Of a stretch of DNA of 15,654 nt, positions 8,596 to 14,942 are shown in pieces. The notes below the pieces were generated by a model. It saw only the letters and a list, made by a program, of their open reading frames with translations, was not told the DNA's origin and ran no database searches. Origin of the DNA: Candidatus Thorarchaeota archaeon (lineage in GTDB: Archaea > Asgardarchaeota > Thorarchaeia > Thorarchaeales > Thorarchaeaceae). How positions within the stretch are numbered: position 1 is the first letter of the stretch; each line of letters starts with the position of its first letter. The stretch is taken from assembly GCA_020348985.1 (NCBI GenBank), contig CP070761.1:2114016-2129669 (forward strand), in the 5' to 3' direction. Made by a program: the position numbers and the translations under genes.

Positions 8596-9588
8596 ATGGA
8601 GGAGAATGGCGTGCCCACAGTCTGTCTGAGCCATGGTGATTTGGATGGTATAACATCCGGTGCCTTGGGTCTACTAGCTTTTCCGGGTTCAGATTTCTAT
8701 TTCACTCGCCCATCTCAGATACATCAAGATCTTTATCGCATTGCAAAGGACAAGCCTGAATCCGTTCTAGTGAGCGACATTGCCGTAAACGAGAGCAGAC
8801 TGAACGACATTCTGAGGGCTATCAGCCGTTTTCCGGACGAATCCAAGGTTATTTGGGTAGATCATCACCCCTTGGGCGCAGCTTACAAACGCAAGCTGGC
8901 CCAAAAGATCGAGTTTGTCCACGAGATAGGGCATTGTGCCGCTGAACTTGTATACCGTCGTTTTGAGCAGAGTCTTCCTGAAAATGCCCTTCGACTTGCA
9001 CTCTACGGGGCAATAGGGGACTACTGTGATAGTACGCCGTTTGCCAAGACACACCTTGACGATTTCGACAAAAGGACTCTTTATCTCGAAGCGGGACTCC
9101 TTGTTCAGGCGCTTCAGGAAATTGACTACAGGCGAGAATCGAAAGATCTCGTCAGGCAGCTCTCGCTAGGCGTCGAGCCAAGCTCTATGAATGACATCGT
9201 GACTCTGGCCATCAAAGCCACGCGAATAGAACACGAAGTCTTCAGATACGTTAGTAAGAACGCTCGAAAGATGGGGCCTATTGGATACGTATTGGATATG
9301 CCAATAGGAGGATACAGAGGAAAGTCTGCCAAGTTTGCCGCATATGTTACAGACTCCAAGGTGGGAATCAGTGCTCGGTCTACTGATGATGATGAAGTGG
9401 ACATTAGTATGAGGATTCGTCGCTCCTCTGTCAACCTCAACCAAGCCCTCAACAAGGTCTTGTCTGGCATCCCGGGAGCTCATGGCGGGGGGCATCCTGC
9501 AGCTGCAGGAGCTAGCATGAGCAAGGTATCGTTCCCGAAGTTCCTACAGGAACTAGCGGAATTTGTAAACCGCGCATCAAAGAGCTAG
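8596..9588 (+). CDS. DHH-family phosphoesterase with DHHA1 domain (RecJ/NrnA-like)
   Basis: Motifs SHGDLDG, SDIA, VDHH, GAIGD, DISMR and GGGHPAAAGA occur in the canonical order. Confidence 0.92.
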   Translation: MEENGVPTVCLSHGDLDGITSGALGLLAFPGSDFYFTRPSQIHQDLYRIAKDKPESVLVSDIAVNESRLNDILRAISRFPDESKVIWVDHHPLGAAYKRKLAQKIEFVHEIGHCAAELVYRRFEQSLPENALRLALYGAIGDYCDSTPFAKTHLDDFDKRTLYLEAGLLVQALQEIDYRRESKDLVRQLSLGVEPSSMNDIVTLAIKATRIEHEVFRYVSKNARKMGPIGYVLDMPIGGYRGKSAKFAAYVTDSKVGISARSTDDDEVDISMRIRRSSVNLNQALNKVLSGIPGAHGGGHPAAAGASMSKVSFPKFLQELAEFVNRASKS

Positions 9589-12191: not shown

Positions 12192-12243
12192 AACGCTTCA
12201 ACTAAGCTCTCACTTATGAGTGTGATTCAAACAGCGGTGATAC

Positions 12244-12266
12244 AACCATCAAGAATGGTTTTTATG
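12244..12266 (+). promoter_or_regulatory. Putative promoter of the profilin pair (TATA-like TTTTTATG) with an overlapping inverted repeat
   Basis: TTTTTATG at 12259-12266, preceded by purine-rich AAGAA. Inverted repeat AACCAT-N5-ATGGTT at 12244-12260. Confidence 0.45.
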
Positions 12267-12327
12267 GAATCGTCACAGATACTTGTCCTAGTTGTCAGAC
12301 CAATGGTCTGGACGGAGTGAATGACAA

Positions 12328-12708
12328 GTGTCAGATCCAGTAATGGAAGCATATACCAAAGCATACAATGATTCAGGTCAGCAGATTCAGGCCTTCGGAG
12401 TAATCAACACTGGAGGACAGGTCCTTTGGCAGAGCAACAATTGGGATCTCACTGCAGACGCAGCCGCTCTTGTCGGTGCAGTAGCAGGGAATGCCCCCAG
12501 CGTTGTTCAGAATCAAGTCAAGTATAGTGTAATTGGTCGAGGTCCTGAGCGACTAGTGGCTCGCAGTGTTGCAGGCCACGGCGTTCTTGTCATGGCGAAG
12601 GTTGATGATGACAAGTGGGCTGTTGCTTGGGCGACCGCAGAAGCGGCACCTGATGCCGTTCATGTTGATGTCGATAGGGCAGCAAGGACAATCAAGGGGA
12701 AGATCTAG
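12328..12708 (+). CDS. Asgard-type profilin (actin regulator), copy 1
   Basis: 126 aa. IQAFGVINTGGQVLWQSNNWD, VKYSV...ERLVARSVAGHGVLVM and the C-terminal helix follow the Asgard profilin pattern (QxxNWD, KY, ER, GxG(H)). SD GGAGTGA at 12314-12320 precedes the GTG start. Confidence 0.85.
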   Translation: MSDPVMEAYTKAYNDSGQQIQAFGVINTGGQVLWQSNNWDLTADAAALVGAVAGNAPSVVQNQVKYSVIGRGPERLVARSVAGHGVLVMAKVDDDKWAVAWATAEAAPDAVHVDVDRAARTIKGKI

Positions 12709-13207: not shown

Positions 13208-13957
13208 TCAATCGTTGGGGAAGACAATACTTCTCAACTTACGAAAGACTTCAACTACTCTATCATTTCCAAATGAATAGAGTTCAACAAGAGTATCGTA
13301 TTGCTTCAAGACTTGCTTGTCGGCAACATCGCCTCTGATTCGGCTGACAACTTTCTCGCGACCTTGTGCCTGCAACGCATTGAGTTCGACCCAAAGATCC
13401 ACGACCTCCTTCTTCTGTTCCTCTGTGAGGCCTAGGTTGAAAGATCTTGACATATCATCAACGTATGTTGTCAACTTCCTGCGCGCAGCTTTGCCTTCTG
13501 CGCCCAGGTGACTAGTAGTCACGACGAACCCTTTCGATGTCCTGCGATAGTAGTCAGTTGTTCTATTCCCCTTTGTAACAGTTCCGAATTTGATTACATA
13601 GCCAGCATCAATTAGCTTCGGCAGGTGATGGTATACCTGGTTCTTTGTGATCTCATCACATCCAACGCACTCGGGGGAAAGCTTGACAATCTCAACAACA
13701 GAAAGTGCATGTCTCTTAACTTCGCGCTGTCGGATTATTCTGTCTCCAGTCACCTCGTCCCTGCTTTCGGATGTGATAGTATCATCAATGCCCTCTCTCA
13801 GGACCTTGAGAATCTGAACCCTCACAGTATCGTCAAGTTCAGCTGCCCTCTTCGGATCCCTGACAAATTCAACATCAGTAACGACCCTCTTAGCTTCCTC
13901 GGTCATTTCAAACTCTATGTCTTCTCGCGTAAATGTATCTTGTAGTTCATCGGACAT
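13208..13957 (-). CDS. Winged helix-turn-helix (ArsR-like) transcriptional regulator with a C-terminal helical domain
   Basis: RVQILKVL...LSVVEIVKL...TKNQVYHHLPKLIDAGYV...TTDYYRRT is a wHTH signature. SD GAGGTGG lies just upstream of the ATG. Confidence 0.82.
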   Translation of the reverse strand: MSDELQDTFTREDIEFEMTEEAKRVVTDVEFVRDPKRAAELDDTVRVQILKVLREGIDDTITSESRDEVTGDRIIRQREVKRHALSVVEIVKLSPECVGCDEITKNQVYHHLPKLIDAGYVIKFGTVTKGNRTTDYYRRTSKGFVVTTSHLGAEGKAARRKLTTYVDDMSRSFNLGLTEEQKKEVVDLWVELNALQAQGREKVVSRIRGDVADKQVLKQYDTLVELYSFGNDRVVEVFRKLRSIVFPND

Positions 13958-14040
13958 CCAGTGGCCACCTCTTTACTCGCCCATCTTCATCATTTCCAAG
14001 CAAATTCAACTTTCAACTTCAATTAGAATACCTAGTTCAC

Positions 14041-14051
14041 AAATATATAAG
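14041..14051 (-). promoter_or_regulatory. Putative TATA box for the wHTH regulator gene
   Basis: The minus strand reads CTTATATATTT, about 85 nt upstream of ATG 13957, in an AT-rich intergenic region. Confidence 0.5.
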
Positions 14052-14346
14052 TTTGTTGGACACACCATTCATCAACTTTTGTTTGCCCAGCAAACAAACA
14101 ATCACTGCATTTGAACATTGCATCTCTAGTCAAACGGTTTAGACTGCCATTCTGCCGTTTAATATCGAAATTCAGAGCTTTCAGGCAATCATTGCATACA
14201 TCTCTCCAGGTTCCATAAGAAGCAGGAGCACAGAATAATAACTAACGTGTTTATCACTCTGGCCAATCATAGTCTTTTTGGCAATCAGAACCGTCCAAGT
14301 TTACAATTTGAACCATTCCATATCTGAATGGTTGGCTGACCAAACC

Positions 14347-14354
14347 TTTATATA
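14347..14354 (+). promoter_or_regulatory. Consensus archaeal TATA box (TTTATATA) for a + strand transcript starting at about 14375-14380
   Basis: Exact TTTATATA located upstream of the structured element and the micro-ORF string. Confidence 0.6.
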
Positions 14355-14389
14355 GATTCGGTGTGTGTGATATACGTGGTCAAAGTGAC

Positions 14390-14499
14390 GGTTTGGATTA
14401 CACACAAAAGCGAACGTGGTGGTTCGGAAATGAGCTGTCTTGGTATAGATGGCAGCGTTTCTCGTAACCCACCGGGTAACGAGAATAGATATCCAAACC
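14390..14499 (+). ncRNA. Candidate structured RNA or leader (four-way junction), family unknown
   Basis: Closing helix GGTTTGGAT (14390-98)/ATCCAAACC (14491-99) encloses three hairpins: CGAAC/GTTCG (14411-26), GCTGTC/GGCAGC (14434-56) and TTCTCGT-A-ACCC/GGGT-A-ACGAGAA (14459-85). Strand inferred from the TATA box. Confidence 0.45.
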
Positions 14500-14545
14500 T
14501 TGCGTTCGATTCGGTGAAGCAGACTGTTACAATCGGTGATATACA

Positions 14546-14653
14546 ATGGCTCTAGTAAAGAACACTCGAAAGAGAACTGTGATGAAGAACAAGAAAGTCG
14601 CACAGGCCCTAGTGGCGGATGCGATTGAATTCGCATACACTTACCGGAGGTAA
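14546..14653 (+). CDS. Small basic peptide 1, 35 aa: MALVKNTRKRTVMKNKKVAQALVADAIEFAYTYRR
   Basis: SD GGTGAT (14535-40) 5 nt before the ATG; similar to the next micro-ORF. Confidence 0.65.
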   Translation: MALVKNTRKRTVMKNKKVAQALVADAIEFAYTYRR

Positions 14654-14658
14654 ACTGA

Positions 14659-14745
14659 ATGGCACTTGCAAAGAGAAACAAGAATCTACTCCAGAAGAAG
14701 AGTATCTCGACAAAGGCTGTTGCTTACGCATACTTGCGCAGGTAG
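14659..14745 (+). CDS. Small basic peptide 2, 28 aa: MALAKRNKNLLQKKSISTKAVAYAYLRR
   Basis: SD GGAGGT (14646-51, overlapping the end of peptide 1) 7 nt before the ATG; similar to peptide 1 with synonymous codon differences. Confidence 0.65.
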   Translation: MALAKRNKNLLQKKSISTKAVAYAYLRR

Positions 14746-14751
14746 ATTGAG

Positions 14752-14871
14752 ATGATCCGAAAGACGGAATCTGATCAATCCGAGGTGCAAAAGCACAGTG
14801 ACGGCTCTGCTTACTCAACAAAGCGTCGAAGCATGACTCTGGAGGATGTGCTCGGGCTTGAACCAACCTGA
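14752..14871 (+). CDS. Small peptide 3, 39 aa: MIRKTESDQSEVQKHSDGSAYSTKRRSMTLEDVLGLEPT
   Basis: ATG 6 nt after the peptide 2 stop; weak SD AGGT (14740-43); internal AYSTKRR echoes the AY..RR ends of peptides 1 and 2. Confidence 0.4.
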   Translation: MIRKTESDQSEVQKHSDGSAYSTKRRSMTLEDVLGLEPT

Positions 14872-14942
14872 GCACTCCTAACTGTTTAGTTCTATCAATC
14901 CTGGTTCACTGCTAAATCTCGCTTTTGGCCAAATTTCGCCAA

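Follow-up and report, generated by a model that had tools for sequence, protein, structure and literature searches.

A probable PH1932-like regulator–operator module joining a micro-protein gene pair and a transporter gene in Thorarchaeota

PadR-type regulators, such as PadR and LmrR, control detoxification genes or efflux pumps, as in the relation between LmrR and its pump, and models for peptide feedback loops are provided by Rgg/SHP quorum sensing and the staphylococcal PSM-PmtR-Pmt circuit. Among archaeal proteins of related fold, PH1932 from Pyrococcus horikoshii (PDB codes: 1ULY and 2CWE) has neither an operator nor a regulon in the literature that we searched. Phr from Pyrococcus furiosus (PF1790; PDB code: 2P4W) is a heat-shock repressor with an ArsR-like winged helix-turn-helix (wHTH) domain and a palindromic promoter site, in which TTTA, TGGTAA, and AAAA boxes lie over the transcription start (PMC6316755). 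Here, we analyzed a 15,654-nucleotide stretch of a Candidatus Thorarchaeota genome (GCA_020348985.1, contig CP070761.1, positions 2,114,016–2,129,669; the window), in which a wHTH regulator gene diverges from a set of small open reading frames (ORFs). An initial annotation, made from the sequence alone, had proposed an integrated module of regulator, operators, structured leader, and peptide array. Our comparison indicates that this idea is largely right, with corrections: the locus quite probably represents a Thorarchaeota-specific module of transcription factor, operator, and targets, in which an autoregulated regulator would control a pair of micro-protein genes and a gene for a major facilitator superfamily (MFS) transporter.

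The regulator ORF (13208–13957, minus strand) faces three small ORFs on the plus strand (14546–14653, 14659–14745, and 14752–14871; p1, p2, and p3) over a 588-nt spacer. As the initial annotation had stated, the two transcription units are divergent and each has a TATA-like box of its own (14043–14050, minus; 14347–14354, plus). The same composite site is present in both promoters: ATGGTTTG-N5-CAAACC abutting the TATA box. On the peptide side, operator O3 (ATGGTTGG-CTGAC-CAAACC, 14328–14346, plus) abuts the TATA box TTTATATA (14347–14354), which was assigned from the sequence and from related loci. On the regulator side, operator O1 (ATGGTGTG-TCCAA-CAAAC, 14051–14068, minus), identical in the related locus L037, is directly followed by the TATA box TTATATAT (14043–14050, minus). 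The two promoters mirror each other, their 29-nt arms (14043–14071 and 14325–14353) being 72% complementary (I1), and O1 reached a position weight matrix score of 12.9 versus a shuffle mean of −3.8 (p 0.003). Two further operator-like sites were found: the perfect palindrome O2 (GTTTG-CCCAG-CAAAC, 14081–14095) upstream of the regulator promoter, kept in L037 and partly in L036 and L038, and the degenerate downstream operator O4 (GTTTG-GATTA-CACAC, 14391–14405, plus), which is perfect in L037 (ATGGTTTG-CGATA-CAAACC). The palindromes in which the spacer had been described as rich are specific, not diffuse: inverted repeats of the form GTTTG-N5-CAAAC, or near variants, occupy 14051–14065, 14081–14095, and 14331–14345, with a degenerate one at 14391–14405.

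The composite site is conserved among relatives and rare elsewhere. In what follows, G and L codes denote related genomes and loci, G000 is the 3.16-Mb single-contig genome that holds the window, and genome counts for the family refer to Thorarchaeaceae (f1). At the peptide promoter, ATrGTTTG-N5-CAAACC is fused to TTTATATA in 19 of the 22 related loci, with variants in L017, L018, and L027. The operator-then-TATA arrangement on the regulator side also occurs in L022, L024–L026, L028, L030, and L037. O3 shares 86–96% DNA identity with its counterparts in G012, G020, and G002, where the remaining spacer is unalignable. A second site lies between the TATA box and the Shine–Dalgarno (SD) sequence in L026, L028, L030, L032, and L034 and, by eye, in L024, L025, L031, L033, and L035. 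A loose regular expression for operator plus TATA box gave six matches in G000, two of them in this spacer. A strict pattern (GGTTTG-N5-CAAACCTTTATAT, at most two mismatches) was searched in 25 genomes, nine of them outside the family; each family genome held 0–3 matches, most of them in this intergenic region. As controls, the reversed pattern gave a single match in the 25 genomes, and the strict pattern itself a single match in the nine genomes outside the family.

Most of the strict matches outside the spacer precede orthologues of one MFS transporter gene. The operator with its TATA box was found ahead of these orthologues (46–71% identity) in seven genomes (G000, G002, G005, G007, G008, G011, and G014), so the system is not self-contained, contrary to what had been proposed. 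In G000, the gene lies at 570299–571891 (minus) with its promoter at 572100–572170; the other loci are L088, L097, L102, L103, L085, and L092. Moreover, the best MFS orthologue immediately follows peptide genes in G000, G002, G003, G005, G007, G016, G018, and G020. The order in G005 is operator plus TATA box, peptides, MFS gene, and the G011 MFS gene is preceded by both this promoter and the second promoter type described below. Judged from gene order and promoter sequence, this physical and regulatory linkage points to a transporter-associated or stress role for the peptides. By sequence, the transporter has no relative in PDB or NCBIfam. A 70-aa ORF between operator and MFS gene in G000 had no tblastn match at other MFS loci and was set aside. 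A further strict operator-plus-TATA match in G000 (761107–761127, minus) lies upstream of a short, partly N-masked ORF starting MEYRKLGKTGVKISEISIGTMY, which by eye resembles an aldo/keto reductase; extra CAAACCAT half-sites occur nearby.

The regulator is a 249-aa protein whose gene has an SD sequence (GGTGG) 7 nt before the ATG. When PDB sequences were searched with a 40-homologue profile (hmmsearch), PH1932 (1uly/2cwe) was matched at E 3.5e-7, with query residues 102–242 aligned to residues 47–190 of the chain. The AlphaFold2 (AF2) model (predicted local distance difference test score, pLDDT, 85) shows the helix-helix-helix-strand-strand topology of a wHTH. Foldseek matched the model to 1ULY at E 1.2e-8, and VIA-align superposed 182 of 190 residues on PH1932 at Z 14.0, a score clearly higher than the next ones. 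The protein has a wHTH domain and a C-terminal helical domain homologous to PH1932 residues ~90–190, two features expected of PH1932-like proteins. By sequence comparison and predicted fold, it is a PH1932-like two-domain protein of the ArsR/PadR type; the Pfam matches to HTH_5 and PadR were both sub-threshold. The likeness to PH1932 covers fold and sequence over the whole length, but the Thorarchaeota protein has ~25 extra N-terminal residues and only 18–23% identity. Because PH1932 has no operator or regulon in the literature searched, no function can be transferred from it.

Other described regulators were also compared. The wHTH domain of Phr superposes on the regulator model at Z 8.7 over 82 residues, but only this domain aligns, and it is tied with many ArsR/SmtB proteins at ~Z 8.7 (ArsR, SmtB, and PadR wHTH domains, Z 7.5–8.7); 2P4W was absent from the regulator profile matches to PDB sequences at E ≤ 1. 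The conserved site is not a Phr-type operator, as ATGGTTTG-N5-CAAACC upstream of the TATA box differs from it in both sequence and position. With PadR-type proteins (B. subtilis PadR, LmrR) the regulator shares a two-domain wHTH architecture, a palindromic operator, and a candidate regulon that includes a membrane pump; however, the Foldseek matches to them were weak (E 1e-3 and above; TM score ~0.25), and the main target here would be a micro-protein operon. That an inverted repeat of the 5-N5-5 form is conserved at the promoters of both the regulator and its neighbor suggests that the regulator presumably binds the palindromic operator as a dimer. A regulator paralogue in G000 (1073471–1074163; 38% identity) has two GTTTG-N6-CAAAC palindromes just downstream of its own TATA box, an arrangement that fits a family of putative autoregulators reading GTTTG/CAAAC half-sites. 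No peptide genes lie beside this paralogue (G000 1073471–1074270).

The first two small ORFs encode micro-proteins of one family. The p1 gene ('long' type; 14546–14653, plus) has an SD sequence GGTGA at 14535–14539 and encodes 35 aa with a net charge of ~+7; the p2 gene ('short' type; 14659–14745, plus) encodes 28 aa and has an SD sequence GGAGGT at 14646–14651. They scored 62 and 42 bits, respectively, with the family hidden Markov model (HMM). The SD sequence of p2 is formed by the final Arg-Arg-stop codons of p1, as CGG AGG TAA spells GGAGGT; the corresponding CGGAGGTAA ending of the first peptide gene is seen in most loci, and each first peptide gene is preceded by GGTGA. Across 17 orthologues, entropy at the three codon positions was 0.87, 0.61, and 1.42 bits, an invariant Ala uses all four wobble bases, and the start, stop, and length of the peptides are conserved. 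By these sequence criteria, p1 and p2 are protein-coding and translationally coupled. They are paralogues with the consensus MALAKNxRxxSxxKKxxIxxxxSTxAIxxAYxYRR; the peptides end in ST-x-A-x-x-AY-x-YRR, have a whole-peptide net charge of +7 to +8, and contain no hydrophobic stretch. AF2 models p1 as a single helix (pLDDT 75). A profile search of 24 Thorarchaeaceae genomes and 16 genomes outside the family detected the peptides in 23 of the former and none of the latter, with 1–12 copies per genome, mostly as tandem long and short pairs. No match to p1 or p2 was found in Pfam, NCBIfam, or PHROGs; the only PDB sequence match for the peptides, to the N-terminus of uS11 at E 0.17, was dismissed as spurious. 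In a library of 1.8 billion proteins, 25 representatives were matched, and the 24 that were fetched are 29–59 aa long and unnamed or 'hypothetical'. The literature searched, on small proteins and ORFs of Asgard archaea and Thorarchaeota and on PH1932, contained no paper describing the system, in agreement with its initial characterization as apparently undescribed. Of the proposed output, small peptides and/or an RNA, the peptides are borne out, and Rfam gave no match for an RNA.

Together, these elements suggest the following mechanism. The PH1932-like regulator, presumably as a dimer, would recognize ATGGTTTG-N5-CAAACC(AT), an inverted repeat. In the promoter of the regulator gene itself, one copy of this repeat adjoins the TATA box at its upstream edge, in the position of the transcription factor B (TFB) recognition element (BRE); the divergent operon, which encodes two coupled, strongly basic, and helical micro-proteins (35 and 28 aa), has a mirror-image copy joined to its TATA box, and a further copy usually lies between TATA box and ribosome-binding site. 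Through these sites, the regulator may control itself and the micro-protein pair together and, in trans, the MFS gene with the same operator and TATA box. It would repress until some signal releases repression, with the micro-proteins as the regulated output. Sequence and comparison show that the genes are real, to which fold family the regulator belongs, that the shared operator is conserved and rare, and which genes make up the regulon; we infer that the regulator is the protein bound to the site, as well as the sign of regulation, the signal, and what the peptides do.

Several observations weigh against this interpretation. The first is synteny. The gene order OPT-DUF167-profilin-profilin-wHTH-peptides-methyltransferase, whose methyltransferase gene is convergent in the window, where it follows p3, forms a seven-gene block in ~20 genomes. 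The divergent unit of regulator and peptide genes is itself conserved: a wHTH orthologue was found in 23 of 24 family genomes, and a family peptide (E ≤ 0.02) faces it over a spacer of 190–590 nt in the window and in 19 of the 20 relatives' loci that were fetched; the twentieth (L035) has a diverged ORF starting MALAKK. Since the whole block is syntenic, this adjacency alone is weak evidence, and the cis-element weighs more. The neighborhood comparison proposed in the initial annotation, for co-occurrence of micro-ORFs and leader with the wHTH gene, came out positive for the micro-ORFs and negative for the leader, which is lineage-specific. Second, L036 and L038, whose regulators are 83% and 79% identical to that of the window, keep the regulator and the regulator-side operator without the peptide cassette. 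Third, most copies of the peptide family use another promoter, with GTCACA-N3-TGTGAC. Fourth, the operator lies upstream of, and abuts, the TATA box, a position that in archaea can also mean activation.

The second promoter stands before 41 of the 48 peptide clusters that were fetched from sites not linked to the regulator. It spans ~86 nt, is conserved across genera, and has the form tAGTCACA-N3-TGTGACt, then CTGTGACCC as a third half-site, then GTGGCTyyGCwTTATATAC, that is, GTGGCTyyGC plus TTATATAC. A GTTTG-N5-CAAAC-type site occurs in only 3 of the 48 clusters. In G000, the second promoter precedes peptide genes exclusively (572215–572304 and 573903–573992, both minus; 1829159–1829362, plus); the loci are L043–L082. 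As most family copies stand under this second promoter, the regulator is, by this sequence comparison, not the master of the peptide family but apparently a local one, for one pair and the MFS gene. The initial annotation had named occurrence at unrelated loci as evidence against the module, and this is what most peptide-family copies show, but not the linked pair. A paralogous regulator was considered as the binder of the second promoter and rejected, since the paralogues' own promoters carry no such site. A common neighbor of the unlinked G000 copies was also sought; the neighbors proved to be unrelated (S41 peptidase, GNAT, UvrA, Arf-like GTPase, and Roadblock).

Activation is the foremost alternative. 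TFB-RF1, Ptr2, and SurR act from upstream sites by recruiting TFB and TATA-binding protein (TBP), and the regulator, bound upstream of the TATA box, could recruit them in the same way to the MFS promoter as well as to the two divergent ones. In favor of this, the site that is conserved best always precedes the TATA box, in the BRE position (19 of 22 loci), and the second, downstream site, which in the window is degenerate (14391–14405), is unseen in some loci. We nevertheless regard activation as unlikely: many loci have a second site between TATA box and SD sequence, with a perfect one in L037; the paralogue has its operators after its TATA box; and repressor function has been described for relatives among ArsR, PadR, and Phr proteins (for Phr, PMC6316755). 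Repression is probably the correct sign, in view of the second site beyond the TATA box and of the known relatives, which act as repressors.

A more far-reaching possibility is a closed peptide-sensing loop, in which the micro-proteins, processed or not, would be exported, the MFS transporter would serve as exporter or immunity pump, and the peptides would feed back on the regulator. Tandem leaderless helical peptides do adjoin the regulator, the MFS gene is directly downstream of peptide genes in eight genomes, shares the operator, and in G011 has both promoter types, and the syntenic block includes an oligopeptide transporter (OPT). The Firmicutes circuits (Rgg/SHP, RRNPP, and psm-alpha/PmtR/Pmt) are similar in combining tandem or adjacent leaderless peptides of 20–35 residues with a dedicated regulator and a transporter; a small peptide gene that adjoins its regulator or diverges from it, as expected for RRNPP and Rgg-SHP systems, is likewise found here. 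However, the Thorarchaeota regulator has no GntR domain and, by Pfam and fold comparison, no peptide-binding tetratricopeptide repeat (TPR) domain; the peptides, hydrophilic and strongly basic, lack a signal sequence, a hydrophobic mature part, and a hydrophobic secreted C-terminus; and the transporter is of the MFS, not the ABC, type. The OPT gene is linked by synteny alone, and the S41 peptidase beside the G000 copies is not conserved elsewhere. Co-folding of two regulator chains with p1 gave a score of 0.00, which carries no weight either way. Secretion and feedback of the Thorarchaeota peptides are conjectural, and we consider such a loop rather improbable. The same doubtful standing applies to a wider Asgard peptide circuit, in which multi-copy cationic leaderless peptides under two dedicated switches, with MFS export or self-protection, might act extracellularly or on the regulator itself; if true, bacterial peptide signaling or peptide antagonism would have a counterpart in archaea, built from unrelated parts.

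Still less probable is that the regulator and the peptide genes share only inherited synteny, with another factor binding the operator and the wHTH protein regulating something else, for example the profilins. The seven-gene block would allow this, and binding by the regulator is itself deduced from sequence, but the same rare site recurs, mirrored, at the promoter of the regulator gene, the profilin promoter has another conserved motif, and the AACCAT-N5-ATGGTT sequence of the window is not conserved. Finally, that the small ORFs are not functional protein genes, but a non-coding RNA or upstream-ORF leader peptides for a downstream gene, is very improbable: the window does have a long structured leader, and some genomes have an MFS or GNAT gene right after peptide ORFs, but the amino acid sequence is conserved through synonymous codons, SD sites are present, the next gene in the window is a convergent methyltransferase gene so that nothing downstream could be attenuated, Rfam yielded no match, and the leader is missing in most relatives.

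An autoregulated repressor of a micro-protein pair and an MFS gene, which we prefer, would bear on a subject that is almost unexplored, gene regulation in Asgard archaea, as comparison alone here links one transcription factor to a probable operator, to the promoter of its own gene, and to a small regulon. The family-wide, multi-copy micro-proteins of 28–38 residues are almost always missed by gene callers, so that a component under conservation and tight regulation is absent from Thorarchaeota proteomes. The repeated link to the MFS gene is a lead to micro-protein function; if that function turns out ordinary, for example binding of nucleic acids under stress, annotation would be the main point of interest.

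The 170-nt leader of the peptide transcript (14375–14545, plus) is long and lineage-specific. It includes a 12-bp hairpin (I4; 14459–14485) and, without a TATA box, a duplicate of the promoter core (14493–14516), which forms a direct repeat with 14340–14363 (D3; 79%). The fold of 14375–14560 has z = −3.2, with one in 200 shuffles as good, so the leader is structured, as had been claimed; it is absent, however, from G002 of the same genus. The distance from operator start to p1 start is 217 nt in the window, 77 nt in G002, and typically 56–99 nt elsewhere, with ~50 nt from the site to the start codon in most relatives. The leader is shared with L037 only (regulator 84% identical), where its core (14412–14520) is 82.6% identical versus 47% for the neutral spacer at 14101–14310. 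No compensatory pairs were seen in L037, the sole alignable relative. Rfam 15 gave no match over 13958–14942 at E ≤ 1, and a tRNA scan of the same region was also empty. No further copy of the leader exists in the genome, which led us to reject a mobile element. By this comparison, the leader appears as a lineage-specific addition, not a defining part of the module; it is possibly functional.

The third ORF, p3 (14752–14871, plus; 39 aa), had been counted with the peptide array, but it is lineage-restricted, to the window and L037, and not a member of the peptide family: the family HMM does not detect it in the window. By tblastn it is found only in the window, and its alignment with L037 shows three non-synonymous and four synonymous differences; its coding status is unsettled. 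Its 94% nucleotide identity with L037 is like that of the adjoining non-coding flank, which runs from p3 to the convergent methyltransferase gene (14872–14942; 93%). At 93–94%, p3 and this 3′ flank exceed the regulator coding sequence (80%) and p1/p2 (87–91%). A predicted stem starts inside p3 and ends just past its stop (z −2.1 for 14746–14942). This conservation could reflect a terminator, an element of the 3′ untranslated region, or a constrained small gene.

Among the loci compared, the gap between methyltransferase and regulator genes is just 420 nt in L036 (2580–3000) and L038 (1205–1625), where a called 64-aa ORF replaces the peptide cassette. G011 has five nearly identical peptide pairs (L052, L053, L059, L061, and L062) with identical second peptides and promoters, which points to duplication in the recent past or to a repeated element that carries them. 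Elsewhere in the window, 9365–9418 (plus) gave a weak match to the C/D-box small nucleolar RNA SNORD64 (27 bits versus a gathering score of 40; E 0.14); it lies inside the ORF at 8596–9588 and is probably due to chance. The profilin pair, beside which the module had been placed, is indeed adjacent but just a syntenic neighbor with a promoter motif of its own, and a profilin promoter sharing the operator was rejected on that ground. The profilin-1 promoter (window 12240–12330; upstream regions in L017–L034) carries the family-wide element CCATCAAGAAT(n)TTTTTATGG and a conserved AGACCGT...ACGGGGTGA just before the start codon, both unrelated to the GTTTG/CAAAC operator.

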